From positions 871 to 64,870 of the forward strand of contig JAAYJI010000005.1 in NCBI GenBank assembly GCA_012523015.1: a DNA stretch of 64,000 nucleotides, given 5' to 3'. Shown here piece after piece: positions 909-39,675 of this stretch. Every line of letters starts with the position of its first letter. Positions within the stretch are counted from its first letter, which is position 1. A model generated the notes under the pieces. That model saw only the letters and a program-made list of their open reading frames with translations, made no database searches and had not been told where the DNA came from. The translations under genes were made by a program, and so were the position numbers. The stretch is from Candidatus Hydrogenedentota bacterium (lineage in GTDB: Bacteria; Hydrogenedentota; Hydrogenedentia; Hydrogenedentales; CAITNO01).

Positions 909-2654
909 TCATTTAATCTTTTGCAGTCCTTTAAACATGAGGTAGTGTTGTTTTATGGGGCGCTTGTCCATCCAGCTGCGCACGCTTTTGGTTTGCCAGG
1001 GTCCTGAATCTTCCCCGGCGCCGGAATTATTATCCCAGAGCCATTTGGGCGTAGGCCACAGGCAATAGCTCGGATCAATGGCTTCGTAAACGGCTTCGCT
1101 CACGCCTTGTTGTCCATGATGTGCCATTTGCACGTAGTCGGAAGGCAGATAGGCGGCTTCAGGGCTTGCCATTAATTTATTGCCTCCTTCGACGCCGAGA
1201 TCAGCCAAGAACAAAACAGATTTGATGCCGTCATCAAAACGCAGCACCATGGACGAGTTGTTCAACGTATTCACGAGAATTTCAGGATTGCATACGCCGA
1301 GGACGCGAATGGAAATGCCGTCAATGGAAATGACTTGTCCCGGTGCGGGCATGAGCACTTCTTTCCCGCTCTTATCTACGGCATCGGTCAGTTCTTCATA
1401 GACTTTGAAGGAACCTTCGTCACAGTTCTTTTCAAACCATTCGCGGTCGGGGTAGGAGGCGTAGAGCGCGTTGATTTCCAAGCCCTCCGGATTGTTCAGC
1501 ACATCGGTCAGTGCTTGGCAATGATCAAGGTGAACGTGGGTCAGGAACCACGCTTCGACCTTGCCGCCCCGCGATTCTATAAAGCGCCGCAAATAGGGAG
1601 CGTTTTGGTAGTAGCCGCCGTCGATGACGATGAGTTTATTGTAGACGGTTTGGATGACATAAGACATCATCTGAGGCATGTCTCCATTGGGCAGCTGCCA
1701 CACCGTGAAAGATTGGTTCCGTTGGCGCAGGGCTTCTTTACTTTCTCCTTGCTCATAGGCGAAGACTTCGGAGTGCATCGTATAAAAACGATAGCCCGTG
1801 TCATGCTGCACCAAGATCGGACTGGACTTATCATTGTCCACAATGGGGTTGCCGCTGTACTTTTCCCAATGGATCAGGTCTGTTGAAGCCGCCACATTGG
1901 AGGTCCATTCTTGCGGCCAATTGCCGGGGATGAGCCCGTGGAAATAGGCGTAGTAAATGCCCTCATATTTGACAATCTGATCCATGGCGATCATGGCCTG
2001 ATCGTAATCGTCGGGTCCCCGTTCCAATACGGGTTCATCTTGCACATGAACCCATTTTTTGAGATCGGTGGAAGTGGCGAGCCAAATGGCTTCATCATCG
2101 CGCTCATAAAAGAGATACCAGACCTCATCTTCATACCAAACTGTTGGCGTGCCGAAGGGCCCCGGGTCAATGGCTTCACCATTGGTTTTTAAAATCGTTA
2201 ACTCCCCCTCTTCCTGCCAGTGAATGCGGTCTTTAGAAATCAAGAGATGGGTTTCATCATTATGATTCTCAGCGAACATATAATAGCTGCCGTCCACTTT
2301 TACGACGATCATATCTTCCACCCACATTTCCACGTCCAAGGGATTGTTCGCGTAGCGTTCCCAATGGAGTCCGTCGGCTGAAGTAGCGTAGCCCAGTTGT
2401 TTGCGGACACGCTTATCTGACGGATAGCCCGTATACCAAAGGTGATACATGCCCTCTTCGTAGAGGATCCATCCCCGCTCGCGCAGGTTTTCATCCCAAG
2501 CGCCTTCTCCGCCGCCTTCAAAGACCGGGTTTTCAAGGAGAGGCGTAAAGGCGACCAGTTCCGTTGGAAAAGGCAGCGAATCGGCGGCTGCCGCAGATGC
2601 GAAAGTAAGCGCGAGGCTGAGCATCAGCAGGGTGAGGATAAAGCGCGTAGGCAT
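909..2654 (-). CDS. Secreted two-domain protein: N-terminal beta-propeller glycosidase-like domain (GH43/GH32/GH130-like) fused to a C-terminal metallo-beta-lactamase-fold domain.
   Basis: Signal peptide MPTRFILTLLMLSLALTFASAAAA with AAGGAG RBS 8 nt upstream of this ATG (the longer ORF start at 2720 is probably an extension). N-terminal half rich in W/Y/D/E propeller-type motifs; C-terminal half has the MBL signature THVHLDHCQ ... MAHHG. Confidence 0.6.
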   Translation of the reverse strand: MPTRFILTLLMLSLALTFASAAAADSLPFPTELVAFTPLLENPVFEGGGEGAWDENLRERGWILYEEGMYHLWYTGYPSDKRVRKQLGYATSADGLHWERYANNPLDVEMWVEDMIVVKVDGSYYMFAENHNDETHLLISKDRIHWQEEGELTILKTNGEAIDPGPFGTPTVWYEDEVWYLFYERDDEAIWLATSTDLKKWVHVQDEPVLERGPDDYDQAMIAMDQIVKYEGIYYAYFHGLIPGNWPQEWTSNVAASTDLIHWEKYSGNPIVDNDKSSPILVQHDTGYRFYTMHSEVFAYEQGESKEALRQRNQSFTVWQLPNGDMPQMMSYVIQTVYNKLIVIDGGYYQNAPYLRRFIESRGGKVEAWFLTHVHLDHCQALTDVLNNPEGLEINALYASYPDREWFEKNCDEGSFKVYEELTDAVDKSGKEVLMPAPGQVISIDGISIRVLGVCNPEILVNTLNNSSMVLRFDDGIKSVLFLADLGVEGGNKLMASPEAAYLPSDYVQMAHHGQQGVSEAVYEAIDPSYCLWPTPKWLWDNNSGAGEDSGPWQTKSVRSWMDKRPIKQHYLMFKGLQKIK

Positions 2655-2760
2655 AGGGCGTAACTCCTTCATAATTGTGTATGCCCGGGATGGCCGCTCC
2701 GTAGAGGCGCGACACATCACCGGGCAATTATTAGATGCAGTATTCTTTAACTATCATAGA

Positions 2761-4065
2761 TCAGGGAAGGGTGAAAGCGTCCACTTCCTCGCCGTCTTCG
2801 TTGATAGCTTTGAAGCTCAAGCCGTCGGGACGTACATCGGTAACCCAGAAATGGGCAATTTGGCCTTCTTTCTCATTGTACCAGCGCGGTTCGGAATCAA
2901 CCTCTCGGGGATCAACGCCAAAGGTACCGTCGCCGAGATAAATGGTGCCTTCGCCCCTTTCGACAACTTTATTGTCTTTGAGGGGTCTCGAACGTTTGAA
3001 CACGTGGTCGTGATGTTCGTAGCCGATGGTGAGTCCATATTTGTCGAAGAGCGGGCCCCAGTGGGTACGTGCCATTTTCGAGGGAAGCCCTTCGAAATCA
3101 CGGTGCGCAGGGTAGAGGGGCACGTGATAGTTGGCAAATTTATATTTCACGTCTTTGTGTTTTTCAAGCTCTTTGCCAAGCCAGTCGGTCTGCCAGCCGT
3201 CAATGGAAATCAGATGGCCCGTATCTAAGAAGAAGATAACCACGTCATCGCTGAATTTCTTGGTGTGGAACACATATTTGCCTTGACGCCCGAAAAAGCC
3301 GAGATAGAAGGGCGAACGCATGTTGATATCATCGGAGATATAGGAGTTTGTTTCGTGGTTGCCGATGGCGGCTACCATGGGGATCATGCGGCCGTCGCTG
3401 GTGTGCATGAAGTCATCCCAGTTCTTGAACCACTGAATCCAGTCTACATATTCGGAGAAAAGGCCGTTGGCATAGGGAATGTCGCCGCCGATGGTCACAA
3501 AGTCCGGATCTTGCTCGCCTGCCCATTTCAGGAGCTTGCGCGCACGTTCACCGATATTCATGTCGCCGCCGTCCACAAAACGGAAAGGCTTATCGCCGCC
3601 GGGAAGGGTGCAGAAAGAACGTTCCGTCGTGTAGCCGTATTCGGGATCGCCGCCGACGAAATAATAGGTCTGACCCGGTTTCTGATCTTTCAACGTTGCC
3701 ATATAAATGGCGCGGCGGTCATACAATTCGATGAGCGTCTGGTAATAGGTTGCTTCAATCTTGTTCGCATAGGATTTCGGATTGCCGTCACGAGGAACGG
3801 TGTCATAGTAGACGGTTACACGACCGGTACGACGTTTGACACAGAGGTTCACGTCGATGGTCGTGGTCGGATCATCGGAATAAGTCAAGTAGGTGTGTAA
3901 GGGGCCGTCTTTGGGTTTGTCCGAAGCTGCCGCTGCCGGTGTGGCGGCCATAATGCTCGCCGCGCCGCCTGCGCCGCCTGCCATGGCTATGGAGGCGCCC
4001 ACCGCGCCGGTGCTCTTCAGAAAAGAGCGGCGTGAAGCGGTCAATTTCTCATCAGGATGTGTCAT
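2761..4065 (-). CDS. TAT-exported purple-acid-phosphatase-like metallophosphoesterase (calcineurin-like).
   Basis: Twin-arginine motif SRRSFLKS; metallophosphatase motifs GDMN, GNHE and HHDH in the canonical order; AGGAG RBS upstream of the ATG at 4065. Confidence 0.8.
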   Translation of the reverse strand: MTHPDEKLTASRRSFLKSTGAVGASIAMAGGAGGAASIMAATPAAAASDKPKDGPLHTYLTYSDDPTTTIDVNLCVKRRTGRVTVYYDTVPRDGNPKSYANKIEATYYQTLIELYDRRAIYMATLKDQKPGQTYYFVGGDPEYGYTTERSFCTLPGGDKPFRFVDGGDMNIGERARKLLKWAGEQDPDFVTIGGDIPYANGLFSEYVDWIQWFKNWDDFMHTSDGRMIPMVAAIGNHETNSYISDDINMRSPFYLGFFGRQGKYVFHTKKFSDDVVIFFLDTGHLISIDGWQTDWLGKELEKHKDVKYKFANYHVPLYPAHRDFEGLPSKMARTHWGPLFDKYGLTIGYEHHDHVFKRSRPLKDNKVVERGEGTIYLGDGTFGVDPREVDSEPRWYNEKEGQIAHFWVTDVRPDGLSFKAINEDGEEVDAFTLP

Positions 4066-4201
4066 TTTTTCTTGTCTCCTTTACTAGGTTCCGGAAGACG
4101 CCTTCGCCTTCCAATTTACATAAAAAAACAGTGAACTCTTTTTCGAGTCTAACAAAGCGATGTATATAAAAATAGTTTAAATAAGGACTTTCTATTTCCG
4201 T

Positions 4202-6076
4202 CTACGGTGTCGCCGTCGTGTTGGGATAATACTGCATGCGGAATTTTACGGCGAAGTCAGGCGACGCAGTACCCGTCAAAGTGATGCGGGATAATATCCC
4301 TTTTTTCTTGTTTGCTTTACAGATATCTTCCAGACTTTCCACCGCAAAGCTGCCCCCGTCACTTTGGATTTCGAGGGTGCCCGTGTCGGTCATAATCCGT
4401 ACCGTATCACCCTCGGCTTCTACGCGCTGCCAGGTCATGAGCGCTTCTTCCACGTCAAAGCTTCCTTCTTGGAAGTGAAAACGATCTTGCAGCGTCAAGC
4501 CTTGGGCCTGCAGTTGGATGATTCGTTCGGCCTCTTCTAATTCGGCCATAGCATAGGCGGCTTCAAAACGGATGCGTGTTCCTTTGTCGCCAAGCTGTTC
4601 AATGCTTCCGCTGCTGCGGGGACCCGTAGCCTGCAGCTTCCCTTGAATCCGTGGAACGCTGTGACCGTAGGAATTTGCAAAAATACTTTCATAGCGTTTG
4701 CCGCTGAAATAATCCCGGTTATACAGGCCCGCGCCGGGATCACAGAGATAAACCACTCCGTCTACGGCAACAATGAAACTGCCCACATCGTTATTATTAT
4801 GAGGTTCCGCGTTGTGACCCGCTTTCGCGATGACAGTCAGCGTGCCGCCTGAGACAGGGGTGGAGAGTTTGATGATTCCCGATTCGGGAAGGAACAGATC
4901 GGTGATGGGCAAATCTTTTTCAACGGTTTCTATTTCCCATAAGATATTGCGCAAGGCAAAATGGAATTGCCCTTGGGGCTGCGGCGAAGCCAACGCGGCA
5001 AGGGCTTTATTGCCCGTTCGTTTCGACAGATGACCGGCAAGGTAGGCGTCGATGGTGTTGCGTTCTTGGGAGTCGGCGAAGCTGGCGTAGGTGTTATTGC
5101 CTAAATAGACGGATAGGGGATAGGCGGCAATGGACGGCATTTTCTCATGGGCAAGCAAGTCAATTGCGCCTGCCGTGCGCACGCGCAGCATCTCCGCAAA
5201 GACCACATATTCACTGAGACCGTAACTCCAATAGCCTATGCCTTCCAAACAGGAGCCGTCTGTATGAAAACCCTTGTCAATAAAGCGTTCCAATTGTTGC
5301 ACAATCAGTGCCAGCGCTTGGGCAAGACGATCCTCGTCCTTTTCATAGAGGAGAAAGGCTTGTCCTACCGACCCGGCGCATACGCCCGTCCAATTGTTGA
5401 GTCCTCGGCTCCAGCCGTATTTTTCGCCATAGGTGAGGAAGGGGTCGAAAATACGGCGCGTTAATTCCTGATGAACACGTTCATGAATTTCTTTGGGTAA
5501 GGTATCGCCCAAGGTCGCGGCAATTTGCGCGAGCCAAGCGCCTGTTTCAGCGGCGGCAAGATCAATATAGGATGCATCTTTTTCGTGTGCAGGGAGAACC
5601 CAAGATGTTTCCTCGCAAATAGACCAGATCAGATCATTCACCCGATCCAAGCGCGTCAGATCATTGCTGAGCAATAGGACGAGGGCTTCACGGGCGAGCA
5701 AACTCCTTTTTTCGAAATAAGGCGTTTGAAAAGCGCTTCGGTCACCGGTCTTTTTAAATAGACGATACAAAGAGTAGGTGAGTTGGGGGAGTTCTGTCGT
5801 TGCTGCCGCCCCTTTGCCCCAGTCCACGAGCACAGCACTTACTGGCAGCGCGGCAAGCTCGCTTGGAGATAAGGCCTCCAATTCAGGGAAAAGCAGGGGG
5901 GAAGCGGGCGTGTTTTGCAGCAGCTGTTTCATCTGTTCTGCAGTCGGCCCCGCTGTTTCTTGCGGAGGACGCGCCTCTTCTCCATAGGCGGGAGCGAAGG
6001 CTGCGATGGAAAAATAAACCAGTGTCACAAGAGTGGCGCACACAAAATACGGTGGAGTTCGGTCGTTTTTAATCAT
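4202..6076 (-). CDS. Secreted heparinase II/III-like polysaccharide lyase family protein.
   Basis: N-terminal signal peptide; C-terminal region GHNAEPHNNNDVGSFIVAVDGVVYLCDPG matches the heparinase II/III C-terminal signature (GHxHxDxxSF). Confidence 0.6.
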   Translation of the reverse strand: MIKNDRTPPYFVCATLVTLVYFSIAAFAPAYGEEARPPQETAGPTAEQMKQLLQNTPASPLLFPELEALSPSELAALPVSAVLVDWGKGAAATTELPQLTYSLYRLFKKTGDRSAFQTPYFEKRSLLAREALVLLLSNDLTRLDRVNDLIWSICEETSWVLPAHEKDASYIDLAAAETGAWLAQIAATLGDTLPKEIHERVHQELTRRIFDPFLTYGEKYGWSRGLNNWTGVCAGSVGQAFLLYEKDEDRLAQALALIVQQLERFIDKGFHTDGSCLEGIGYWSYGLSEYVVFAEMLRVRTAGAIDLLAHEKMPSIAAYPLSVYLGNNTYASFADSQERNTIDAYLAGHLSKRTGNKALAALASPQPQGQFHFALRNILWEIETVEKDLPITDLFLPESGIIKLSTPVSGGTLTVIAKAGHNAEPHNNNDVGSFIVAVDGVVYLCDPGAGLYNRDYFSGKRYESIFANSYGHSVPRIQGKLQATGPRSSGSIEQLGDKGTRIRFEAAYAMAELEEAERIIQLQAQGLTLQDRFHFQEGSFDVEEALMTWQRVEAEGDTVRIMTDTGTLEIQSDGGSFAVESLEDICKANKKKGILSRITLTGTASPDFAVKFRMQYYPNTTATP

Positions 6077-6294: not shown

Positions 6295-7821
6295 TTGAGA
6301 ATGTGTACCTGTTGCATGAACCGCAGATCTTTTCTGGGGGTATCCTCAGCCTTGACGGCTGCCACAGCCGTAGGCGCTTTCTCGAAAGGAGCCGCGGCAG
6401 CGACGCCCGATTGGCCCGCTGATTATTGGGATGGGAACCGAAAGCCCCATACCTTGGGCAGACCCTTGCGCGTGCAGCCTATCCTGATGTACCGTACTCC
6501 TGAACCGCGGGTCCAAGACTCATGGAAATCGTGGGGCGGCATACAAACGGAGGAGGCGGCGGCCGAAGAAAAGCTGCGCATTACAGAAGAGTTGGAAAGC
6601 CTGAGCCGCCGAGCTGATTTTCCTCTCGAGCTGCTTCCCGTGGCGGCTATAAAAACCGAGGAAGAAGCGCAGCAGGCGCACGCGTCCAATCCCGACGTGG
6701 TGATTGTGTATCCCGCCACGGGCTCGGGGCAGCTGTTGCAAAGCGCGTTGTTGCCGGACGGTGGATTGATCTTTGTACGGCATCGTTCAGGCCCAGTCTA
6801 TTATTGGTATGAAGCCTTGAGTGTGCGTCAATTGACCAAAAGCGGAGAAGCAGCCGATCCGCGGCGCCGTGCTTCCGTGGAGGATGTGGTGGTAGATGAT
6901 ACGGATGAATTGCTTTGGCGGCTCCGCGCCCGATTTGCCGCACACAATTTCATGGGCGCTCGGGTTCTTGCCATCGGCGGCGCTCAGGGTAAATACGATG
7001 ACACTGCGCCGCAGTTCGCCCAAGACCGCTTTAAGATGGATATAGTCGACGCCTCCTACACGGATCTCGAAAAACGTATCGTGTCGGTGTTAGCTGACCC
7101 TAAGAAGATGGCGCTTTGTGAGACGTGGACCGATCAGTATCTCGCGCTGCCCCGTACGACGCTGAACACGGAACGGGATTTCGTCGTACGAAGTTTTATG
7201 CTCTACGGCATCTTCAAGGATCTTATGGAGGAAGCAGGCACAGACTTGATGACCATTAACCAGTGTATGAGCACCATTATCCCCATGTCCCAGACAACGG
7301 CTTGTCTGACCTTGGGCTTGTTGAACGATGAGGGACAGGTCGCTTTTTGTGAAGCGGATTTTGTAATTGTTCCTGCCGGCATCTTTTTGCGCTATCTGTC
7401 GGGCAAGCCCGTGTTCATGCACAACTCCACCTTTCCCCATAACGGTGTGGTCACCTGTGCTCATTGTACGGGGCCGCGGCGTATGGACGGCGTACACTAT
7501 GATCCGGCAGAGATCCTCACCCACTATGAATCGGAATATGGCGCGGCGCCGAAAGTGGAAATCCCCGTCGGCCAAGAGCTGACCTTTATCAGCCCTGAAT
7601 TCGCCACAGGCCGCTGGGTGGGGATACGCGGCGTTGTGGAAGATAATCCCTTCCTCGAGATTTGCCGATCCCAACAGGATGTGCGTATCCATGGCGATTG
7701 GCGGCGGCTCATCAACGAAGTGCGTGATTCCCACTGGATGATGGTTTACGGCGATTATCTCAAAGAGATTGCCTATGCCGCGCCTCAGATTGGCGTGACC
7801 GTGGACGCCATCACCGCCTAA
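6295..7821 (+). CDS. TAT-exported hypothetical protein (508 aa), function unknown.
   Basis: Twin-arginine motif NRRSFLGVSSALTAATAVGA; GGA-rich RBS (AAGGAGGA); long open frame with codon usage consistent with neighbours. No family recognised with confidence. Confidence 0.55.
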   Translation: MRMCTCCMNRRSFLGVSSALTAATAVGAFSKGAAAATPDWPADYWDGNRKPHTLGRPLRVQPILMYRTPEPRVQDSWKSWGGIQTEEAAAEEKLRITEELESLSRRADFPLELLPVAAIKTEEEAQQAHASNPDVVIVYPATGSGQLLQSALLPDGGLIFVRHRSGPVYYWYEALSVRQLTKSGEAADPRRRASVEDVVVDDTDELLWRLRARFAAHNFMGARVLAIGGAQGKYDDTAPQFAQDRFKMDIVDASYTDLEKRIVSVLADPKKMALCETWTDQYLALPRTTLNTERDFVVRSFMLYGIFKDLMEEAGTDLMTINQCMSTIIPMSQTTACLTLGLLNDEGQVAFCEADFVIVPAGIFLRYLSGKPVFMHNSTFPHNGVVTCAHCTGPRRMDGVHYDPAEILTHYESEYGAAPKVEIPVGQELTFISPEFATGRWVGIRGVVEDNPFLEICRSQQDVRIHGDWRRLINEVRDSHWMMVYGDYLKEIAYAAPQIGVTVDAITA

Positions 7822-9699: not shown

Positions 9700-12600
9700 T
9701 TGTTCTTCACATACAGGGACCCCCAATTGCAGGATAGAACCTCACCTATTCGGCTCAGGCGCTTGATACCAATCCTCCTGTTACTCGCCGTCGCCATAAT
9801 CATCCGCGCTTATGTTTTTCAGGAATATCGCGATGAACCTGATTATGGCTATCCAATGCATGATGCCGCCTTTAAGGACTACTGGGCGCGTGCTATTGTC
9901 ACAGGAGATTGGACACCACCACCGGGTAAAGACTCACCTTTTTGCGACTGGATGCCTTATTGCCATCCGCCTGCTTACCCGTGGTTTTTAGCCGGCGTGT
10001 ACAAAGTCTTCGGCTTGAATGCTGCCGCGCCCCGTTTAATACAGCTGCTGCTCGGATTATTTTCCATCCTGCTGCTCTACGATTTCACGCGTCGCTGTTT
10101 TCATCACGGGATCGCCTTCTTTGCTGCGCTGCTCATGTCGCTGTATTTTATTTTCCCCTTATATGACATGGATATTGGACAGACGAGCCTTGGTATCTTT
10201 TTGTTGTTGGCGACAGTGGATTTACTCGCCCTTTCTTTTTCCTCGCGATCCTATCGCCCCGTCTTTTGGGCGGGACTCGTTCTCGGCTGTCTTTTTCTCA
10301 CCCGTGGTGAGTTTATCGTTTTTCTACCCCTTTTCTTGTTGGTAGTCCTCTTTCGCCGGCCCCAAGGCAGCCGCCGACGTACAGCGCTCTTCAGTCCCCT
10401 TGTTTTGCTCCTTGCCCTTGCTATTCCTCTCGCGCCGGTAACGCTACGCAATTACCGCCATGCCGGCGTGTTCCCCGTGCTTTCCGGTGACGGCCCTATC
10501 CTTTTTTATTATTCTAACAATCCCTGGGCAACGGGATTTAATCCTGACTCACCCGATCTGCGCGCCTATAGCGATAACAACGAATGGTCCCTCTTTGCTT
10601 TTCCTAAAATGTATGAACGCTACGCGGAGGCTTCTGGCTTGCCGCCCCACGACTATACCGCATTGGTCGGGCATCTCACGCAAAAGGCGTGGCACTATAT
10701 TCGCAGTCATCCTCATGACTGGGCGCGCCTCGTTTTCAAGAAGGTCGTGTTGTTCTGGGGTCCGCAGGAGATTGATGAAAATAAAATCATTGCTTATGAC
10801 AAAAAGCATTCCGCTATACTACGCTATTTGCCGGGCTTCCCCTTTATAATGGGTATTTTCCTTTTGGGCGTGATCTTGCTCATTTTTGGAAAAGGGACGG
10901 GAACTTCCGAAAATATTTCTGAAAACGCTGTCCCCGTAAAACAACAACGGCTTCTAGGGGCATTATTTTTATTCTCTATCATACTGTACACGGGCATTTA
11001 CGCCATCTTTTATGTGACCGCACGGTATCGCGTTCCCATGATCCCCTTCATGATGATTTTCGGGGGAATCGCGCTGCATCAACTCTTTCTTCTAATCAGG
11101 GGCCGCCGATATCGTTATGGTATCGGATGGGCACTGCTTTTCGCCTGTTTTTATCTGCTGTCAAGCATTCAATGGATTCCTTTCACGCCCGACCGGGCAC
11201 GGTGGCACGATGAAAGACGGCAGGCATGGACAGCAACCAACCGACTTCGGGAGGGCGTGGACGATTTGCAGCGCTGGATCGCTTACCAGCCTGATGATGC
11301 TGACGCCTACTACAATCGGGGCGTGATGCTCTTTGATCTGAAAGAACAGGAAGCTTCCTTAACTTGTTTTCGAAAGGCGCTGGAAATTGATCCGGCTTAT
11401 CTGCAGGCTTATTATAATTTAGGTCTTGCCTACAGTGAGATGGGACACTATGAAGAGGCGGTTCAGGCTTTTCAATCGCGATTGCACGGAGCGCCGGAGG
11501 ATGCCGATAGTTGGTATGGACTCAGCCGTGTCTATGCCTATATGGGACAGGGCGCTGAACAAGGCGACACCTTGGAGAAGGCGGTTGCCGTAAATCCGCG
11601 GCATGCCCGCGCCTTGGTTGATCTTGCTGTTCTGCGCAAGGGACAGGGCGACGTACAGGCAGCGGAATCCTTGCTGCGACAGGCGCTGCGCTACAATCCC
11701 AATTACAGTATGGCGGCCTTTAATTTGGGACTTTTATTGAATGATCTCGGTCATTATAAAGCGGGCTTAGCGCAGCTGGAACAGGCGCTGATGGAAGACG
11801 AGGACAATCCGGAATTCCACTACAACACGGGCTTGGCGCTCATGCACCTGGGGCGGTACGAAGCGGCCGTGATGCAATTTAACGAGACGTTAAGGGTATC
11901 GCCCGATTACGGGGAGGTTTATTCGAACTTGGGTTTGTGTTTGGGGCGGCTGGGCCGTGAAATGGAAGCACGAGCAGCTTTCGACAAGGCCTTTGCACTG
12001 CTGCCCGAAGCGGTCGATACCCTCTACAATTATGGCTGTGCTTTGAAGGCGCTTGGCGACCTGCAAGAGGCAGAAAAGCATCTCCTTCAGGTTCTTGCTC
12101 TGAACCCTGACCATGGCAAAGCGCAATTCGAGCTGGGCGTCCTCTACATTAACAGCGGCGATTTCGAAAAGGCGCTGTCCCACTTGGAAGGAGCAGTGAA
12201 AACGCTGCACGGCGATCCGGAGATCCATTATAACCTTGGGCTCATCCGCCAGCGACAAGGCATGATACCGGAGGCTATGACTCATTTCTACGACGCCTTG
12301 AAGCGTGATCCCAAGCACTATGCGGCAAATTGCAGCGTGGCGACGGTGCTGCGGTCTCGGGGTGACGGGGCGGGCGCGCTGCCTTACCTGGAAATCGCTT
12401 TAGAGCAGACGCCCGAAGATGCCTCGTTGTTGTATGAACAAGGACTCGCTTTCTACGGGCTGCAGCGTTTTGAAGAAGCCTCTGCGTCGCTCGACAAATC
12501 AAAGGCAGCCGCCCCTGACCGTCCGCAGACGTGGAAGAATCTCGCGCTCAGCTTGCACGCAGCAGGAAAGAATGAGGAAGCGATCGATAATTTCACCCAA

Positions 12601-13998
12601 TATTTGGAGGAGGTTCCGGAGGACGACGGGGCGCGTACCGACCTGGGCATCACGTTCATCGATGCACAGCGTTTTGAGGAGGCGGAATCGCTGTTCAAGA
12701 TGCTCTTGCAAGACCACGATCAGGACGCCCGCCTGTATTACGATTATGGGCGTGCCTTGGCAGGATTGAAGCACTATGAAGCCGCTGTGGACGCCTTCAG
12801 AAATGCCTTGCATTGGGATGCCGGCTATATTGACGCCATGAACAGCCTCGCCTTCACCCTTTCTCTGATCGATAGGAACGAGGAAGCGGAGCAATGGTTG
12901 AAGCACGCCCTGTGTTTGGACGCGGTGAACGGGGACAGCTTCTTTAATTTAGGCTATGTGTACAGCGTCACGGGCCGCAGTGAGGAAGCGATGAACCGCT
13001 TTCGGGACCGCTTACGTATGGATCCCCACCATGGGCCGTCACTGCTCAATGTGGGGCTGCTTCTAGAGGAGCGCGGCGATAAAGAGGGGGCATTACAGGC
13101 CTTTCACGATGCGCTCGCCGCTGATGAATCCCTTGCCCTTGCTCATCACCATATGGCGGGGCTCCTTCGCGATGCCGGTGATGGGGAAGCTGCACTCACC
13201 CATTACAGACGTGCTTTGGAACTGGATCCTGATAATGTCAACACGCCGAAGAATCTGGGCTTCCTCTTGATACAGCTGAATCGAGAAGGTGAGGCAAAAG
13301 AATTGTTTGAACGTGCCCTGCAGGCGACGCCCGACGATGCAGATGCCCATGTCGGACTGGGCGATGTCTTGGCCGCGGAAAATAATCCAGACGCCGCACA
13401 ACAGCATTATGAACGTGCTCTTGCCTTGCAGCCGCAACATGCCTTGGCTTTGCGCCAGTATGGCTTTTTGCTCATGCGAAAAGGATTGGCTGCTGAAGCC
13501 TTGCAGTATTTTGAAAGGGCACTGCCTTTGTTGTCGGAGGATGCCGGACTTCATGTAGGCCTTGCCGATGCCTTAGCAGCGCGGGGCAGTACGGACGAGG
13601 CAGAACGCTATTACCGCGAAGCGATTGAACGCTATCCTGATTTTGATCTGGCATGGAATAATCTCGGAGATCTCCTTTCCCGCGACGGGCGCACTGTCGA
13701 AGCCATCGACGCTTTTGAACGGGCGCGTGTGCTTATGCCCGGAAACGCCAATGTTCTGTTGAACCTCGGACGCCTGTATATGCGTGAGAAAAAAAAGGAG
13801 CAAGCCCTTCAGGTACTTGAAGAGGCGCGCCGCATTGAGCCCGATAATTTGCGTGTCCGTGTGTTGCTCGGCGATATACAGCTTGAGTTGGGCAATGCCG
13901 CCGCTGCCATCAAAGAATATCAACAGGTCCTTCTCGAGCGGCCCGACTGGCAGGATGTACGGGAGAAACTGACCGCTGCCGGCGCCATAAAGGAATAA
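9700..13998 (+). CDS. Giant membrane protein: N-terminal GT-C-fold glycosyltransferase-like polytopic domain (PMT_2/GT39/ArnT-like, DE motif in the first loop) fused to a very long TPR array (TMTC-like architecture).
   Basis: First hydrophobic helix followed by YRDEPDYGY (the DE motif position of GT-C mannosyl/arabinosyltransferases), then about 11 TM segments and about 20 tandem 34-aa TPR units (recurring AYYNLG / A..L..A patterns). The start at 9700 is a TTG; the true start is uncertain (an alternative in-frame TTG lies near 9757). Confidence 0.75.
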   Translation: MFFTYRDPQLQDRTSPIRLRRLIPILLLLAVAIIIRAYVFQEYRDEPDYGYPMHDAAFKDYWARAIVTGDWTPPPGKDSPFCDWMPYCHPPAYPWFLAGVYKVFGLNAAAPRLIQLLLGLFSILLLYDFTRRCFHHGIAFFAALLMSLYFIFPLYDMDIGQTSLGIFLLLATVDLLALSFSSRSYRPVFWAGLVLGCLFLTRGEFIVFLPLFLLVVLFRRPQGSRRRTALFSPLVLLLALAIPLAPVTLRNYRHAGVFPVLSGDGPILFYYSNNPWATGFNPDSPDLRAYSDNNEWSLFAFPKMYERYAEASGLPPHDYTALVGHLTQKAWHYIRSHPHDWARLVFKKVVLFWGPQEIDENKIIAYDKKHSAILRYLPGFPFIMGIFLLGVILLIFGKGTGTSENISENAVPVKQQRLLGALFLFSIILYTGIYAIFYVTARYRVPMIPFMMIFGGIALHQLFLLIRGRRYRYGIGWALLFACFYLLSSIQWIPFTPDRARWHDERRQAWTATNRLREGVDDLQRWIAYQPDDADAYYNRGVMLFDLKEQEASLTCFRKALEIDPAYLQAYYNLGLAYSEMGHYEEAVQAFQSRLHGAPEDADSWYGLSRVYAYMGQGAEQGDTLEKAVAVNPRHARALVDLAVLRKGQGDVQAAESLLRQALRYNPNYSMAAFNLGLLLNDLGHYKAGLAQLEQALMEDEDNPEFHYNTGLALMHLGRYEAAVMQFNETLRVSPDYGEVYSNLGLCLGRLGREMEARAAFDKAFALLPEAVDTLYNYGCALKALGDLQEAEKHLLQVLALNPDHGKAQFELGVLYINSGDFEKALSHLEGAVKTLHGDPEIHYNLGLIRQRQGMIPEAMTHFYDALKRDPKHYAANCSVATVLRSRGDGAGALPYLEIALEQTPEDASLLYEQGLAFYGLQRFEEASASLDKSKAAAPDRPQTWKNLALSLHAAGKNEEAIDNFTQYLEEVPEDDGARTDLGITFIDAQRFEEAESLFKMLLQDHDQDARLYYDYGRALAGLKHYEAAVDAFRNALHWDAGYIDAMNSLAFTLSLIDRNEEAEQWLKHALCLDAVNGDSFFNLGYVYSVTGRSEEAMNRFRDRLRMDPHHGPSLLNVGLLLEERGDKEGALQAFHDALAADESLALAHHHMAGLLRDAGDGEAALTHYRRALELDPDNVNTPKNLGFLLIQLNREGEAKELFERALQATPDDADAHVGLGDVLAAENNPDAAQQHYERALALQPQHALALRQYGFLLMRKGLAAEALQYFERALPLLSEDAGLHVGLADALAARGSTDEAERYYREAIERYPDFDLAWNNLGDLLSRDGRTVEAIDAFERARVLMPGNANVLLNLGRLYMREKKKEQALQVLEEARRIEPDNLRVRVLLGDIQLELGNAAAAIKEYQQVLLERPDWQDVREKLTAAGAIKE

Positions 13999-14106
13999 AA
14001 GGAAACCCTTCCCTAATGCCGTGGGGCGGAGAACAAGAATTCCGATAGGTTGTTTTCTCGGTATGGCTGTTGGACTGTTACCACCCCCTTGGGCTATGAT
14101 TTGTCC

Positions 14107-17100
14107 ATGAATACAAAAGAAAAACAACATACGATTGCCGGTCTTTTTGTGCTCCTGTTAATCATGGGAATCGCTGTCATCCTTCGGTTGGTCGGGATTA
14201 CCAAGGAGTCTTTGTGGTGGGATGAATACGCCAGCCATGTGTATTTGAATACGCCTACCCTTTCCGACTTCCTCGCGTGGAATCTAAGCCTTGATCCGCT
14301 CAGCCTGCCCAGTTATTACAGTCTGGAATATTGGTGGACACACTATGTGCATGATTCCGTATTGAGTCTTCGGCTTCTGAGTGTTCTTATCGGTGTTGCC
14401 GTCATTCCCCTCGTCTACGGATTGGGCAGACGCATGGTGAGCCGACGTGCAGGTTTGTTGGCGGCCGCGCTGGTCGCCCTGTCGCCCAACCATATACACC
14501 ACGCCCAAGGTATACGCGCTTACGTTCTGTTTATATTCCTTACCGCCCTGGTCGTGTGGACCTTTATCCGCCTTCTCGAGGAGCGGCGCTTGTCATGGTG
14601 GGCAGCCCATGCTATTGCCTGCCTGCTCTTGTATTGGACCCATGCCTTTTCGGTCTTACTGCCTCTTTCCTTAGGTATTTTTTTGCTATTTCGTTTGAAG
14701 GTGTGGCGCGGCTTTCTCTTTCAGTGGGGCATCGTGCAAGTGATTTTATTGGCGCCCACAGCCTTTTATCTTTCCACGCTTCGGTTCTGGCCGCAAGATA
14801 CCACAGCACGCTGGATTGCACTGCCGGGCGTCTTATCCCTTGGCGCTGATCTCTTCTTCGACGATATTTCCGCCTTTCATTGGCAGTTTCGATTGGGCGC
14901 GATAGCAGCTTCCTTGGGATCGCTGCGCGTGGTTGTTGACCTTGTCTTTGCCGTACTGATCCTAGTCGGTCTTTTACAAGTTGCGGCGAGTGGGGCGCGA
15001 AAGAAGACACAAGATTCCGCCTCCAAAAATAACTATGGACTCCTTTTTTATCTCTGGCTTCTTATCTCGCCCATAAGTTTATTTATACTGTCTTGGACAA
15101 TGCGCCCTTGTATGTTTCCGCGCTATACGATTCATAGTACCCTTGCCTTATACCTGCTTTTGGGCGCAGCATTTGGAGCGTCCAAAATTCCCGGTCGCCG
15201 TCTCGTATTGCCCTTGCTCCTTTGCGGACTCATGTTTCTCCAATGGTTTTGGCTGCAGCCGGGTCCGCAGCGCAGCGATTGGCGTTCCGCCGCACTCTTC
15301 CTTCAAGAACAGGCTGCGCCTCACGATGTATTGCTGGTTAAGAACAGGCTTAGCCGAAATATTTTTCTACACAATATGGAAGTATTGACACCGCAAAACC
15401 TAGAGATTCCTGTGGCTTCAGCGAGTACTTATTCCCTTTTAGCCGCGCAGACTGCTCTGTGTCTAGGCATACTTCCTTCGGAGACGGAAGACACACGAGT
15501 CTGGGTGCTCGTGGCTATGGACTATTTTGAGCCGGGCCCGCCCCAAGATTTTGAGCGTTATCTTGAAGAATGGTCTATTCCTTTTGAACGCTGGTCTTTT
15601 CCTGCCATTCGCGAAATCTATATCTATCGCATGGACAGGGGAACGGCAGCCCTGCCCGATTCTATAGAAGCTTTATATACGGACTCGGACATCAAAAAAG
15701 ACAGCTTAGCGGGAGACCTGGAGCATCACAGCATGCAAGCTTTCGGAGAGCTTGCAACGGCTCTGGCTTTGCAAGGAGAACGAGAGGCGGCAAAAGAAAT
15801 CTTTGACGGTATTTTTAAGATCAATACCTTCGCCAAAGAAATCTATGGGAATTTTCGTAAAGCCTTGGATGCGGCTGAAGAACTCGATACCAAGGCAGCA
15901 GCCATCGAAACGCTTTGGCAAGCCTATGGTTTGCGCAAGAATGTTCAGCCGCGCCTCATGCTGCAGGCGTTTCAAAAGGCGGCGGCTTTGGATCCCATGC
16001 TTGCCCTCGCTCATGTCGAAATAGGGCTGGAGCTGGCACAACAAGGAACCTATACCGAAGCGAGAGAAGCGTTACTGCTTGCAATGAATGCCGATGATCG
16101 GTATCGTGATATGCTCTCCAGTCTCGTTGATGCATTGGCAAATGGTCAGGACATTCCCGCAAAATTAAGCGCTGTTATGGACTATCGTGAGGCGCTTTTA
16201 GCACTCAGCACCGGCGACACGGAAAAAGCGCAACGTATGCTGCAACATGCCCGCGCGACTGATCCCCAACTGGTTGCTGCTCAGCTTATGCTTGCCTATG
16301 TCTGGGTCGACGGGGACAGCGATGAAGACGTAGAAGCACTGCTGCAGCAGTATCTAAGCGCCACCGACCGTCCTCTTATTGATAGTTTTGCTTATCTTGC
16401 AATGATTCTAACTGAACATAACAACCTGGACCGCGCCGCCAACACCATGAAGATGCTTTTTGACACAGATACTCAGACCCGCAAGAGCTACGACAGTTTA
16501 GCGAAAGCCCTTGCATCGGGCGAAGGTGTGTCCGAAGCAGCGTTATCAATCCGCAGCATGTGGGAAGGCTTTGATGCAGCGGCGAATGCAAAGGAAGAAC
16601 AAGCGCTGAGCGCCTTTGCCAAAGCAGTGGAAATAAATCCCGACAATAACCCGGCGGCCCTTGAATTAGCGCTTCATCTGGTTGCTGCGAAGCGACAGGA
16701 AGAGGCGCTTCCCTTGCTTCTGCGTGTTGCTGAAAAAGACCCCGATTATAGGACGATGACCGAGTTTCTCATTCACGATATACGCAGCGGGGCTGATACG
16801 ACGGCGAGCCTCAACGGGATCAACGCCTATCGGCGCGGAATCCTTGCACAGAGCCGCGGCGAGTATGAAGAGGCGGTGACAGCGTTGGAGGAGGCGGTGC
16901 AGGCGGATCCGCGACTCGAAGCCGCCCATACGTCGCGGGTATTTAACTTAATTATTCTGCGTAGATTTGAAGAGGCGATGGCAGGGCTTAACCGCTATCT
17001 TGATGGAACAGAGCATCCGTCGCCCGGAGCCTTTGGGCTTCTTACCGTGCTTTACATTGCCAACAAGGATACGGAACAAGCCGTCGAGTCGTACCGGACT

Positions 17101-17925
17101 GCCATGAGTATGGATGACAGCTACGCGCAGCAATTCGGACCGATCTTTTTCGCGGCCTTGGAGATGCGCGACTACGACAAGCTCCGACAGGAGATGGATC
17201 AACTGAAAAAGGCAGGTGTCGACCTCTATCCGCTCATGGATGAAATCACCCGCGATTATTTGGCAAATACTGAGCCTCGTTCCGAAGCTGAGATTGCCCT
17301 TCAAAAAATGAAAGAAGAGAACCGATACTGGGCAGATATGCAGCGTTTTGCCGAGGAAGATGAGGCAGAAACACCCGTTCCCGGCGATATCCTCTTTACC
17401 GGCAGCTCCACGGCTCGCATGTGGGATGTGAAGAAGTTTTTCCCCGATTTACCTGTTGTGAATCGCGGCTTTGGCGGCTCTGTGTATAAAGAAGTGACTC
17501 TCTTCCACAAGGAGATCGTGCGCAGCCACCAGCCCTCCATCCTTGTTTTGTATTCCGGTGATAACGACGTTTTCAGAAATGAGACCGCTGAAGAGACAGC
17601 ACAAGATGGATTGGATGCTGTAGATGCGCTGCGCACAGTGGCACCGAAGGCGCAGATTATTGTGATCAGCACCAAACCCAGTGCTTCCCGCTGGCAGTAT
17701 GCGCCGGTCATGCTCGCCGCCAATGGGATTATCGCTGAACAGCTTGCCACGCGGGAAAACATGATCTTCGTCGATCTTGTTCCTTTGCTTCTGGATGAGA
17801 AGGGCTTGCCCGATCCCGTATGTTTCCGTGACGACGAATTACATTTAAGCGATGAAGGATACCGTCGCTGGAGCGAAGCGCTGCGACCCTACCTCATCAA
17901 AGCCGGAGAAACAACAGAAAACTGA
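14107..17925 (+). CDS. Giant three-module membrane protein: GT-C-like polytopic domain (PMT_2/GT39-like, WWDEY motif), TPR-like helical repeats, and a C-terminal SGNH/GDSL hydrolase domain.
   Basis: ATG at 14107 (MNTKEKQHTIAGLF) precedes the first TM; LWWDEYASH DE motif; multi-TM region to about aa 400; helical repeat region. The C-terminus has the SGNH blocks in canonical order: FTGSS (block I Ser), GFGGS (block II Gly), YSGDNDV (block III GxND), DELHLSDEGY (block V DxxH). Confidence 0.75.
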   Translation: MNTKEKQHTIAGLFVLLLIMGIAVILRLVGITKESLWWDEYASHVYLNTPTLSDFLAWNLSLDPLSLPSYYSLEYWWTHYVHDSVLSLRLLSVLIGVAVIPLVYGLGRRMVSRRAGLLAAALVALSPNHIHHAQGIRAYVLFIFLTALVVWTFIRLLEERRLSWWAAHAIACLLLYWTHAFSVLLPLSLGIFLLFRLKVWRGFLFQWGIVQVILLAPTAFYLSTLRFWPQDTTARWIALPGVLSLGADLFFDDISAFHWQFRLGAIAASLGSLRVVVDLVFAVLILVGLLQVAASGARKKTQDSASKNNYGLLFYLWLLISPISLFILSWTMRPCMFPRYTIHSTLALYLLLGAAFGASKIPGRRLVLPLLLCGLMFLQWFWLQPGPQRSDWRSAALFLQEQAAPHDVLLVKNRLSRNIFLHNMEVLTPQNLEIPVASASTYSLLAAQTALCLGILPSETEDTRVWVLVAMDYFEPGPPQDFERYLEEWSIPFERWSFPAIREIYIYRMDRGTAALPDSIEALYTDSDIKKDSLAGDLEHHSMQAFGELATALALQGEREAAKEIFDGIFKINTFAKEIYGNFRKALDAAEELDTKAAAIETLWQAYGLRKNVQPRLMLQAFQKAAALDPMLALAHVEIGLELAQQGTYTEAREALLLAMNADDRYRDMLSSLVDALANGQDIPAKLSAVMDYREALLALSTGDTEKAQRMLQHARATDPQLVAAQLMLAYVWVDGDSDEDVEALLQQYLSATDRPLIDSFAYLAMILTEHNNLDRAANTMKMLFDTDTQTRKSYDSLAKALASGEGVSEAALSIRSMWEGFDAAANAKEEQALSAFAKAVEINPDNNPAALELALHLVAAKRQEEALPLLLRVAEKDPDYRTMTEFLIHDIRSGADTTASLNGINAYRRGILAQSRGEYEEAVTALEEAVQADPRLEAAHTSRVFNLIILRRFEEAMAGLNRYLDGTEHPSPGAFGLLTVLYIANKDTEQAVESYRTAMSMDDSYAQQFGPIFFAALEMRDYDKLRQEMDQLKKAGVDLYPLMDEITRDYLANTEPRSEAEIALQKMKEENRYWADMQRFAEEDEAETPVPGDILFTGSSTARMWDVKKFFPDLPVVNRGFGGSVYKEVTLFHKEIVRSHQPSILVLYSGDNDVFRNETAEETAQDGLDAVDALRTVAPKAQIIVISTKPSASRWQYAPVMLAANGIIAEQLATRENMIFVDLVPLLLDEKGLPDPVCFRDDELHLSDEGYRRWSEALRPYLIKAGETTEN

Positions 17926-24493: not shown

Positions 24494-26569
24494 ATGAATA
24501 CGACCAAGTCCGTCGCCCATCTTTTTATAGTGCTTTTGTTGCTGCTGAGTTCATCAACGCTCTTTGCCGACTTCTTTGTTGCGCCTGATGGTGCCGATGA
24601 TAATCCGGGAACAGAACAGGCTCCTTTTCGAAGTCTTGAAAAGGCACGGGATGCCATCCGCGCATTAAAAAAAGAAGCAGGGCTTCCCGACGGCGGTGTT
24701 ACCGTTCATATTGCCGGCGGCACCTATGAACAGCGCCGTACGTTTGTTTTGACTGCTGAGGATTCCGGAACTGCTGCCGCCCCCATTCGTTATTGTGCCT
24801 TCGGAGCTGAAGCGCCTTGTTTTACGGGAGCCTTGCCGCTGCGCAACTTTAGGGCTGTTGACGATCCGGAGATTTTGGCAAGGCTGCCGGAATCAGCTCG
24901 GGAACATATACGTTGCGCCGATCTTGCTGAAGCGGGATTGGATGAGGTGCCTGCACTGCTGCTGGGTGGTTTTTCAAGTGGCAGGGGATTCGTAACCCAC
25001 CCGATCATGGAACTCTTCGTTGAGGATGTGCCCATGATACCGGCGCGTTGGCCCAACGAAGGCTTTATCTTTACCGGCGAAATCCAAGGGGACACAGTTC
25101 AAGCTGCGAAGGACGAGGCGGACACGCCTAAGGACGGTATTTTCAAATTTCTTGAAGAGCGTCCCTTGTCGTGGGTCAACGAGCCGGACCCTTGGCTTTA
25201 CGGCTATTGGTATTGGGACTGGGCTGATTCCTACGAAAAGATTGCGTCAATCGATGCTGAAAACCGTATCATTCGATTGGAGAAGCCGTGGCATGGTTAT
25301 GGTTACCGCGCCAAGCAGCGCTACTATGCGCTGAACCTGCTCTGTGAACTGGACATGCCCGGTGAATGGTATTTGGACAGGGCAGAGAAAAAGCTGTACC
25401 TCTATCCGAAACAGGATTTGGAGGGCGCAAGAGTGTCGCTTTCTGCCGCGCTCTTTTCGATGGTGCATGCAACAGACCTTGCCTACCTTTCCTTTGAAGG
25501 TATTCAATGGGAATGCGGCGCGGCAGACGGCATTCTTTTGGAAGGCGGTACTGCCTGCCGACTAGAAGGCTGTGTCATTCGTAAAATGGCGGGTAATGGT
25601 CTGGAGATCAACGGCGGCTTCGAACATCATGTTCAATCCTGCGACATTTATTCTATGGGCCGCGGCGGCATAGTGCTTAGCGGCGGCGATCGCAAAAGCT
25701 TGCGCCCGGGAAAACATCGAGTTGAAAACTGCCATATCCACCACCTGTCACGGATTGACCATTGTTATACGCCCGGAGTCTTGTTATCAGGTGTCGGCAA
25801 TGAGATCCGCCACTGTTTCATTCATGATGTGGCAAGCAGTGCTTTCCGCGTGGGCGGCAACGATCATCTGTTGGAATTTAACGAAATCTACAGAGCTGTA
25901 TTGGAATCCGATGATCAGGGCGGCGCTGATATGTGGGGCGATCCGACGTATTACGGAAACGTGTATCGCTACAATTATTGGCATCATTTGGGCAATCCGA
26001 AGAAAGATAAAGAAGATGCCCATTCTATGCAGGCAGGTATCCGTCTGGACGATGCCATTTGCGGCGTGGTTATAGAAGGCAATATCTTTCAACGTTGTTC
26101 CATGGCGCCTACCGTATTTGGCGGTGTACAGATTCACGGAGGAAAAGATAATTTAATTACGGGCAATCTCTTTGTAGACAATGCGGCTGCCGTCAGTTTT
26201 TCACCTTGGGGCGAGAAACGTTGGCATGCCTTTGTCGCAGATGCCCTTGACGCGGAAGAGATAGACCGCGCCCTCTATCTGGAGCGCTATCCCGCCTTGG
26301 CAAAACTCTTAGACGATCATGATTTTAATAGGGTTGAGAACAATGTGGTGTTGCGTTGTGATCAGCTTTTCCTTCGTGCTCCCGATGTTATCCAATCACG
26401 GGGCAACCGAGAGCTGCCCGACAGCGGCTTCATGAGAGAATCGGCGGAGGAACGACTCCACTGGTCGGAAAGCGAAGCGGCCGAACTCGGTCTGCAACAC
26501 ATCCCCTTTGAAAAGATCGGCTTATACAAGGATCGGTGGCGGAGCGAAGTGGTCAGAGCGGGAAATTAA
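24494..26569 (+). CDS. Secreted right-handed parallel beta-helix repeat protein (pectin-lyase fold), probable polysaccharide-active enzyme.
   Basis: Signal peptide (LLLLLSSSTLFA); the hallmark FVAPDGADDNPGTEQAPFRSLEKA N-terminus of beta-helix proteins; repeated G.N..I.-type coil motifs (NGLEINGG, GNEIRHCFIHD, IEGNIFQRC, ITGNLFVDN). Confidence 0.7.
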   Translation: MNTTKSVAHLFIVLLLLLSSSTLFADFFVAPDGADDNPGTEQAPFRSLEKARDAIRALKKEAGLPDGGVTVHIAGGTYEQRRTFVLTAEDSGTAAAPIRYCAFGAEAPCFTGALPLRNFRAVDDPEILARLPESAREHIRCADLAEAGLDEVPALLLGGFSSGRGFVTHPIMELFVEDVPMIPARWPNEGFIFTGEIQGDTVQAAKDEADTPKDGIFKFLEERPLSWVNEPDPWLYGYWYWDWADSYEKIASIDAENRIIRLEKPWHGYGYRAKQRYYALNLLCELDMPGEWYLDRAEKKLYLYPKQDLEGARVSLSAALFSMVHATDLAYLSFEGIQWECGAADGILLEGGTACRLEGCVIRKMAGNGLEINGGFEHHVQSCDIYSMGRGGIVLSGGDRKSLRPGKHRVENCHIHHLSRIDHCYTPGVLLSGVGNEIRHCFIHDVASSAFRVGGNDHLLEFNEIYRAVLESDDQGGADMWGDPTYYGNVYRYNYWHHLGNPKKDKEDAHSMQAGIRLDDAICGVVIEGNIFQRCSMAPTVFGGVQIHGGKDNLITGNLFVDNAAAVSFSPWGEKRWHAFVADALDAEEIDRALYLERYPALAKLLDDHDFNRVENNVVLRCDQLFLRAPDVIQSRGNRELPDSGFMRESAEERLHWSESEAAELGLQHIPFEKIGLYKDRWRSEVVRAGN

Positions 26570-29132: not shown

Positions 29133-32504
<3,372 letters not shown>

Positions 32505-39635: not shown

Positions 39636-39675
39636 TGCGCCTCTAGTGCCCTTGTTTTTTGCTGAAAGGAATACG

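Follow-up and report, generated by a model that had tools for sequence, protein, structure and literature searches.

A stretch of 64,000 nucleotides from a Candidatus Hydrogenedentota bacterium (contig JAAYJI010000005.1, positions 871 to 64,870, hereafter the window) encodes near its beginning a genuine secreted two-domain protein, in which a five-bladed beta-propeller related to glycoside hydrolase family 130 (GH130) is followed by a metallo-beta-lactamase (MBL)-fold domain of the ComEC/Pce type. Its gene closes a row of three in the same orientation, after those for a PL33-like polysaccharide lyase and a purple-acid-phosphatase-like (PAP-like) protein. Together with its neighbours the fusion protein may act as a secreted bifunctional glycosidase and glycan phosphodiesterase on an acidic phosphorylated polysaccharide, a reading to which we give a probability of roughly 0.45. 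The architecture, homologies, residue conservation, synteny and recurrence of fusion described below are observed, and every activity and substrate is inferred from them.

An uninterrupted open reading frame (ORF) spans 909-2720 on the minus strand in the ORF list of the window. Its ATG at 2654 is favoured over the GTG at 2720 because an AAGGAG stands 9 nt upstream, and is likely the true start of the coding sequence. The 581-aa product is 100% identical to an NCBI protein from a metagenome-assembled genome (MAG), P0001, entered as 'MBL fold metallo-hydrolase [Candidatus Hydrogenedentes bacterium]'. The gene and its product are organized as follows.

909..2654, minus strand: whole coding sequence of the fusion protein, 581 aa plus a stop codon at 909-911 (ORF list, translation checked)
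2664..2669, minus strand: AAGGAG resembling a Shine-Dalgarno sequence, 9 nt upstream of the start codon at 2654 (read from the sequence)
2583..2654, minus strand: putative Sec signal peptide, aa 1-24, MPTRFILTLLMLSLALTFASAAAA (read from the sequence)
1755..2576, minus strand: GH130-related five-bladed beta-propeller domain, aa 27-300 (AlphaFold2 model, Foldseek, profile search, hhalign)
1713..1754, minus strand: variable linker between the domains, aa 301-314 (columns of low conservation among the aligned fusion homologues)
912..1712, minus strand: MBL-fold domain of the ComEC/Pce type, aa 315-581

Seven further full-length homologues of 567-569 aa (58-66% identity) were found in independent ENA and Logan assemblies, and therefore the fusion is not an assembly artefact. 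All seven can be aligned from end to end except in the variable linker, and they have equivalent hydrophobic N-termini; the N-terminus, MPTRFILTLLMLSLALTFASAAAA, resembles a Sec signal peptide. An alignment that mixed fusion, N-domain and C-domain proteins was discarded, having put about 65 residues of every N-domain protein wrongly into the MBL region. The first-pass annotation of this DNA had described a secreted single polypeptide joining a propeller of the GH43/GH32/GH130 superfamily to an MBL domain, and this description is borne out by Pfam, profiles, structure models and homologues.

The Pfam scan suggested earlier for the C-terminal half returned Lactamase_B (PF00753) at 35.7 bits against a cut-off of 22.7, and structure prediction gave models of high predicted local distance difference test score (pLDDT 96 for the MBL domain, 95 for the propeller). 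With the MBL model, Foldseek found 482 Protein Data Bank (PDB) matches at E<=1e-3, with an MBL fold throughout among the matches listed; the ComEC domain 9ic4 ranked first (template modelling score, TM, 0.75), followed by Pce (0.70-0.74) and then by all others, and the structural Z falls from 25.5 to 17.7 once ComEC and Pce are passed. The family profile likewise retrieved ComEC MBL domains first (5.8e-8 to 1e-4) and Pce at 0.023. The domain is markedly nearer to the ComEC C-terminal domain and Pce than to other MBLs, which places it in a subgroup where every characterised member is a phosphodiesterase. ComEC domains are Mn2+-dependent phosphodiesterases/nucleases (PMC8579336, PMC12455585), the ComEC C-terminal domain hydrolysing both bis(p-nitrophenyl) phosphate and DNA with Mn2+ (PMC8579336), and Pce takes phosphorylcholine off teichoic acid (PMC4929436). 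Subgroup membership and genomic context together point to a putative phosphodiesterase activity of the MBL domain.

The metal-binding motifs, besides D345 as the ligand of motif I (65-66 of 66 family members), are the following.

1521..1538, minus strand: motif II, H373-V-H375-L-D377-H378 (HVHLDH, aa 373-378; translation), kept in 65-66 of 66 members
1251..1262, minus strand: N465-N466-S-S, aligned to ComEC 'NNNS', probable motif III Asn ligand (9ic4 profile alignment), invariant
1200..1202, minus strand: D485, motif IV bridging Asp, aligned to ComEC 'SAD'/'GD', 66 of 66 members
1116..1121, minus strand: H512-H513, motif V His and a second His as in ComEC 'HHGS' (alignments), 66 of 66 members

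The signature HVHLDH ... MAHHG, noticed in the first reading of the sequence, is conserved at aa 373-378 and 510-514, and a full His/Asp ligand set, on which that reading also relied, is present with one substitution: the canonical His of motif III is absent and an invariant Asn (N465/N466, in NNSS at 465-468) stands instead, with all other ligands in place. ComEC MBL domains also carry Asn at motif III and are active (PMC8579336). Since D345, H373/H375/D377/H378, N465/466, D485 and H512 are all conserved, the metal site looks intact, and probably binuclear. An aromatic-rich, Trp-rich C-terminal extension, CLWPTPKWLWDNNSG, is conserved in the MBL family and was not found in ComEC.

A genome scan yielded at least 592 loci, the best 80 of which, at species level, were examined. 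The commonest partner of this MBL family is a secreted protein of about 710 aa, 62-65% identical across loci, with only weak matches to GH42M, GLMA_2nd and GH42C. At four Planctomycetota/Hydrogenedentota loci the MBL domain stands C-terminal to this protein in a single ORF (L010:7793-10804, L011:1004-3988, L027:64-3771, L032:7835-10804), and at two others the genes are adjacent (L001:5872-8894, L007:5661-7790): in L001 the two genes overlap by ATGA, while in L007 a 709-aa GH42-like gene lies divergently beside a fusion gene. The ORF adjacent upstream in L049 also matches the 710-aa family. Neither the 710-aa protein nor a 777-aa partner protein described below gave a solved relative or a firm Pfam family, and the former, GH42-like by its weak matches, may represent an unrecognised glycosidase family. 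Further MBL domains end a 1658-aa protein with SASA acetylesterase, Laminin_G_3 and Ig-like domains, or follow a DUF5122 propeller. In L085 and P0393 the MBL domain follows an Exo_endo_phos (EEP) domain, an independent phosphoesterase fusion; the proteins concerned (L085:9062-11734, from a Chlamydiae-labelled MAG, and P0393) are lipoproteins of 884-890 aa which also carry about 300 aa of C-terminal repeats.

Stand-alone MBL genes of Bacteroidota lie beside SusC/SusD genes (L065, L076, L077), and in two Parapedobacter loci (L076:546-10801, L086:6933-10801) both GDPD phosphodiesterases and SusC/D genes flank the MBL gene; these two may be teichoic-acid or phosphodiester utilisation loci. L086 also holds a choice-of-anchor-I protein. 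In L007 a NAGPA phosphodiester glycosidase is encoded two genes from the fusion gene, beyond the 709-aa gene. The phosphoester context (PAP-like synteny, EEP fusions, GDPD and NAGPA neighbours) would speak for the proposed glycan phosphodiesterase, as would the glycan context (PL33-like neighbour, GH42-like and SASA fusions, SusC/D). The earlier idea of a decoration-removing module joined to a glycosidase gains indirect support from the independent fusion of the MBL family to other glycosidase-like and esterase modules; the chemistry it put forward, an alkyl/aryl-sulfatase or esterase, is not supported, as no alkyl-sulfatase Pfam family matched and the EEP, GDPD and PAP-like context points to phosphoesters.

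Several other explanations were weighed, each of which fits fewer of the observations than a glycosidase coupled to a glycan phosphodiesterase. The MBL domain might be a secreted ComEC-like nuclease which, with the PAP-like phosphatase, obtains phosphate from DNA or RNA outside the cell, with the propeller binding the matrix or being an unrelated glycosidase. This is unlikely in our judgement, although the nearest relative by both sequence and structure is the ComEC nuclease domain, the motif III Asn and HHG are common to the MBL family and ComEC, EEP partners include DNase I-like nucleases, and the PAP-like phosphatase is adjacent. Against these stand the absence of the DNA-guiding OB-fold and channel domains of ComEC (the NCBIfam ComEC models TIGR00361 and PRK11539 score 26.4 and 29.6 bits against 190 and 969, over the MBL part only, and no membrane domain was found in the 581-aa protein), a motif II of the form HxHxDH as in Pce rather than the HxDxDH of ComEC, the C-terminal extension described above, the recurrent fusion to glycosidase-like or carbohydrate-esterase modules and the adjacent SusC/D genes. 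In comparison with the ComEC/Rec2 MBL domain (9ic4; Moorella and Bacillus ComEC), the fusion protein is soluble and secreted and is found in a glycan rather than a competence context. Its likeness to Pce/CbpE, the phosphorylcholine esterase of Streptococcus pneumoniae (2bib, 1wra), is limited to 13-14% identity; at motif III Pce carries His (PMC8579336) where the fusion protein has Asn, and this Gram-positive cell-wall enzyme carries choline-binding repeats where the fusion protein carries a propeller.

A sulfatase or acyl esterase that unmasks a sulfated or acylated glycosaminoglycan-like polymer for the propeller glycosidase is likewise improbable. The domain resembles sulfatases no more closely than it does any MBL, as the drop in structural Z after ComEC and Pce illustrates; alkyl-sulfatase Pfam families gave no match to the fusion protein, the HHG doublet and NNSS are shared specifically with ComEC, and the fusion and neighbour partners are phosphoesterases (EEP, GDPD, PAP-like). 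Still less probable is a sugar lactonase, analogous to the SMP-30/gluconolactonase to which the propeller family is fused elsewhere, that would open aldonolactone ends produced by periplasmic oxidoreductases of the Gfo/Idh/MocA type: lactonase MBLs are structurally distant, with no N-acyl homoserine lactonase in the top 50-60 matches, the nearest MBL subgroup contains phosphodiesterases only, and the Gfo gene lies outside the conserved synteny of L004 and L005. Proximity of Gfo/Idh/MocA genes is in any case weak evidence, because such genes are very abundant in these phyla.

The N-terminal propeller is a homologue of GH130 on the same catalytic scaffold, yet it forms a distinct GH130-related family and is not a GH130 member either by curated thresholds or by its sugar-recognition residues. 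In its AlphaFold model the top 22 PDB matches by Foldseek are all GH130 (TM 0.70-0.75, about 20% identity), followed by GH43, GH32, GH62 and GH117. A profile of 70 family members matches the structure 9fj8 of the GH130 enzyme Teth514_1788 at 1.4e-17, and hhalign against a GH130_6 alignment gives a probability of 98.9% locally and 99.4% globally. Pfam Glyco_hydro_130 (PF04041) falls just short of its 26-bit cut-off, with 24.3 bits (E 1.8e-5) over profile positions 108-220 only, and the NCBIfam beta-1,2-mannobiose phosphorylase model reaches 55.6 against 450. Close relatives of the propeller score just above the GH130, GH43 and GH32N thresholds simultaneously, which is the signature of a separate family inside the same superfamily. 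Whether this half matches a glycoside hydrolase family, on which the first-pass annotation would stand or fall, comes out borderline: homology to GH130 is clear, yet the domain stays below every curated threshold. The family is large, comes from the same stock as GH130 and has no characterised members.

Published functional residues of GH130 were mapped onto the propeller through hhalign columns (PMC4264767 for Asn28, Asp92 and Asp281; PMC4599007 for BT3780 residues; PMC12814180), with roles of the catalytic-motif residues taken from PMC4264767 and PMC4599007. The positions that stand out are these.

2313..2318, minus strand: E113-D114, equivalent to Teth514_1788 Glu91-Asp92 of the catalytic 'EDPR' motif (hhalign), invariant in 70 of 70 family members
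2475..2477, minus strand: R60, Arg at the position of Asn28 in the GH130 -1 subsite, a mannose O3/O4 ligand (hhalign), conserved in 70 of 70
2100..2105, minus strand: E184-R185, an inserted invariant Glu184 and an Arg aligned to GH130_6 Arg160 (hhalign, conservation)

The catalytic Asp of GH130 corresponds to Asp131 in BfMGP, Asp92 in Teth514_1788 and Asp142 in BT3780, and the hydrolase BT3780 has the Glu pair Glu227/Glu268. Because the Glu-Asp catalytic motif is kept, the propeller is most likely an exo-acting glycosidase. Much of the remaining GH130 apparatus has changed in this family: Arg43 of the +1 subsite is replaced by Thr75, the Arg of 'EDPR' (Teth514_1788 Arg94) is lost, the Arg112/Arg118 loop is missing, the family shows a deletion of six residues, and neither Lys142, the beta-1,2 determinant, nor the 'aRvG' Arg is conserved, while equivalents of Arg160 and His213 are retained as R185 and H239. 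Hydrolysis appears more likely than phosphorolysis, since the protein is exported and most basic residues of the GH130 phosphate site are lost. The mannose ligands of the GH130 -1 subsite are Asn28/73/74 and Asp281/344/363. The first, which binds neutral hydroxyls, has become an invariant Arg, and in the last blade an invariant His294 ('YTMH') stands roughly where GH130 has 'GGAD' (Asp281), in a region that cannot be aligned; this combination suggests that the rebuilt pocket accepts a sugar of another kind, probably an anionic one.

Across the 70 members, at about 55% identity, some 46 columns do not vary, among them D54, E59, R60, E113, D114, E129, D133, E184, D187, H239 and H294. That one domain is catalytically dead and only binds, the propeller for example being a lectin that targets the MBL enzyme to a polymer, is very improbable: the propeller does miss its family thresholds and lacks two of three GH130 mannose ligands along with most residues of the phosphate site, but its invariant columns include an acidic and basic cluster typical of an active site, and the full set of MBL metal ligands is invariant.

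Among known systems, the propeller is matched best, in structure and by profile, by the GH130 beta-1,2-mannoside phosphorylases and hydrolases, and Teth514_1788 (9fj8/9gph), Teth514_1789 (7fip) and BT3780 (5a7v) share its five-bladed fold of about 300 aa and the Glu-Asp motif. The fusion protein differs from them by the extra Glu184, by 'YTMH' in place of 'GGAD', by Arg in place of Asn28, by the attached MBL domain and by export, whereas GH130 phosphorylases are cytoplasmic. Bacteroides yeast-mannan loci likewise direct a GH130-type exo-enzyme and phosphoesterases against a phosphodiester-containing glycan. In 2015 Cuskin et al. reportedly described in Nature a mannose-6-phosphatase accompanying BT3780 in these loci. 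BT3780 itself is a GH130 beta-1,2-mannosidase of the mannan loci (PMC4599007). Those loci differ in that the genes are separate, the phosphatase has another fold and the substrate is known, whereas the pocket of the fusion protein is not mannose-like and its partner lyase implies a uronic acid.

The conserved neighbours, with which the fusion gene forms a compact four-gene set, are as follows.

2761..4065, minus strand: purple-acid-phosphatase-like metallophosphoesterase with a twin-arginine translocation (TAT) signal, 434 aa (Pfam Metallophos, Pur_ac_phosph_N, TAT_signal)
4202..6076, minus strand: PL33-like polysaccharide lyase, 624 aa (PDB 8r73, 1.5e-42)
6295..7821, plus strand: divergently transcribed 508-aa TAT-signal protein (sole match TAT_signal)

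This agrees with the first-pass annotation, which had placed a heparinase-like lyase and a secreted phosphatase beside the gene. The PAP-like protein matches PDB 6gja at 7e-9, and its orthologues, 67-68% identical, lie beside fusion genes in L004, L005 and L008. The lyase matches 8r73 at 1.5e-42 and both 8r75 and 8r6z at 7e-36 in phmmer over aa 102-555, with a sub-threshold Pfam Hepar_II_III_C match, and has orthologues of 61-63% identity in L004, L005 and L008. These three structures are PL33 enzymes (PMC11848413), which accept glucuronate at +1 and degrade hyaluronan, heparosan, chondroitin sulfate or gellan (PMC11848413). The 508-aa protein, for which no PDB relative and no Pfam match beyond TAT_signal were found, is the best-conserved member of the block, with a 78% identical orthologue in L005 and another in L008. 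As a whole the block is conserved at 61-78% identity beside fusion orthologues in L004, L005/L006 and L008. In L005/L006 and L008 the 777-aa protein is inserted between the PAP-like and fusion genes, and in L018 it comes before the fusion gene (L005:5650-7983, L008:6744-9077, L018:5321-7300 approximately); the window and L004 lack it. A 1600-aa ORF at L018:5321-10123 that resembled a triple fusion proved to be an out-of-frame artefact of a masked run of N, representing the 777-aa gene followed by the fusion gene. Promoter and terminator scans gave background-level signals only and speak neither for nor against a single operon at 909-6076.

From these parts a sequential degradation can be envisaged. 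The MBL domain would first cut a phosphodiester substituent or bridge on the glycan, a metal-bridged hydroxide attacking the phosphodiester by homology with its relatives; the adjacent TAT-exported PAP-like enzyme would then take off the leftover phosphomonoester, the propeller would remove the exposed terminal sugar, and the adjacent PL33-like lyase would cleave the glucuronate-containing backbone.

A number of points weigh against this scheme. The activities of both families are predictions from sequence, and the propeller scores below every curated glycoside hydrolase threshold checked in Pfam and NCBIfam. It does not keep two of the three residues by which GH130 recognises mannose, so that even glycosidase activity has to be inferred. 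The residue map of the propeller comes from profile alignment rather than superposition, and global hhalign gave no trustworthy alignment of the last blade, leaving the equivalence of His294 and Asp281 unestablished. Each domain was modelled alone rather than within the full-length protein. ComEC-type domains are nucleases, and DNA rather than a glycan could therefore be the substrate. A stand-alone propeller gene beside a stand-alone MBL gene was found at none of the 80 species-level loci, and the neighbours of stand-alone MBL genes are heterogeneous: when about 365 neighbours were clustered and 117 immediate neighbours were subjected to a Pfam census, only scattered families emerged (GH78 in four cases, Gfo/Idh/MocA in four, GHL10 in three and SusD in two). 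The coupling of the two activities is therefore not general.

Both domains are widespread as stand-alone secreted proteins. Stand-alone propellers are 'glycosylases' of about 320 aa, 50-58% identical, from Planctomycetota, Spirosoma and others, and stand-alone MBL proteins of about 300 aa (50-60% identical) gave 982 matches, the best 80 MBL loci belonging to Hydrogenedentota, Planctomycetota, Verrucomicrobiota, Armatimonadota, Latescibacterota, Bacteroidota and Clostridia. The propeller-MBL fusion itself is rare. It is present in only two of these 80 loci, where the same Rosetta-stone check added only two weak matches to other propellers, and when 1.84 billion 50%-identity representatives were searched exhaustively with HMMER, a single one matched both domains. 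The propeller family is also fused to SMP-30/gluconolactonase, 3-keto-disaccharide-hydrolase (DUF1080) and DUF4185 domains.

A more far-reaching proposal, which we regard as rather doubtful, is that the MBL module stands for a class of secreted 'glycan phosphodiesterases' that is widespread but unrecognised, and the propeller for a new GH130-derived glycoside hydrolase family with an Arg/His-lined pocket for anionic sugars. Planctomycetota, Hydrogenedentota, Verrucomicrobiota, Armatimonadota and Bacteroidota would then attach the MBL module to different glycosidases, with teichoic-acid-like polymers, phosphoglycans and microbial-mat exopolysaccharides as candidate targets and a uronate or phosphorylated residue as the anionic sugar. 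A search of the available literature on such a fusion, its families, or MBL phosphodiesterases in polysaccharide utilisation loci returned nothing relevant. Phosphodiester-linked and phosphate-decorated polysaccharides, such as teichoic acids, phosphomannans and capsular or exopolymeric phosphoglycans, constitute a substantial reservoir of organic carbon and phosphorus, and to our knowledge few enzymes that degrade them have been described outside Gram-positive autolysins. If the reading of the fusion protein is right, it would add two enzyme families to the catalogues of carbohydrate-active enzymes: a GH130-derived family with a rebuilt sugar pocket, represented thousands of times among bacteria of soil, sediment and wastewater, and an MBL-type phosphodiesterase module dedicated to glycans. 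If it is wrong, what remains is one more uncharacterised multidomain MAG hydrolase. The finding is of value chiefly as a way into two large enzyme families that have yet to be characterised.

Some minor observations concern relatives of the two domains. Very large proteins of up to 5844 aa (P0359, P0360, P0372, P0407 and others) match only residues ~41-106 of the propeller, 8-52 times each, apparently as one blade-like unit repeated. URO-D-like genes (uroporphyrinogen decarboxylase family) recur near stand-alone MBL genes at about five loci (L038:1329-2423 and four others; L002:14884-16104).

The rest of the window is ordinary chromosome, with genes for MgtE, UvrC, TolB, PntAB, DinB, GH2 and glycosyltransferases. 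Three giant TPR proteins of 1291-1606 aa are encoded at 9700-13998, 14050-17925 and 39659-44479 (plus strand), the first two with an N-terminal PMT_2 glycosyltransferase-like membrane domain and the second also with a C-terminal GDSL lipase/acylhydrolase. Other glycan-active genes are scattered here, as listed below.

24494-26569, plus strand: beta-helix protein with a weak match to a GH141 insertion domain
27874-29034, minus strand: BNR_2 sialidase-like protein
29133-32492, minus strand: GH2 beta-galactosidase

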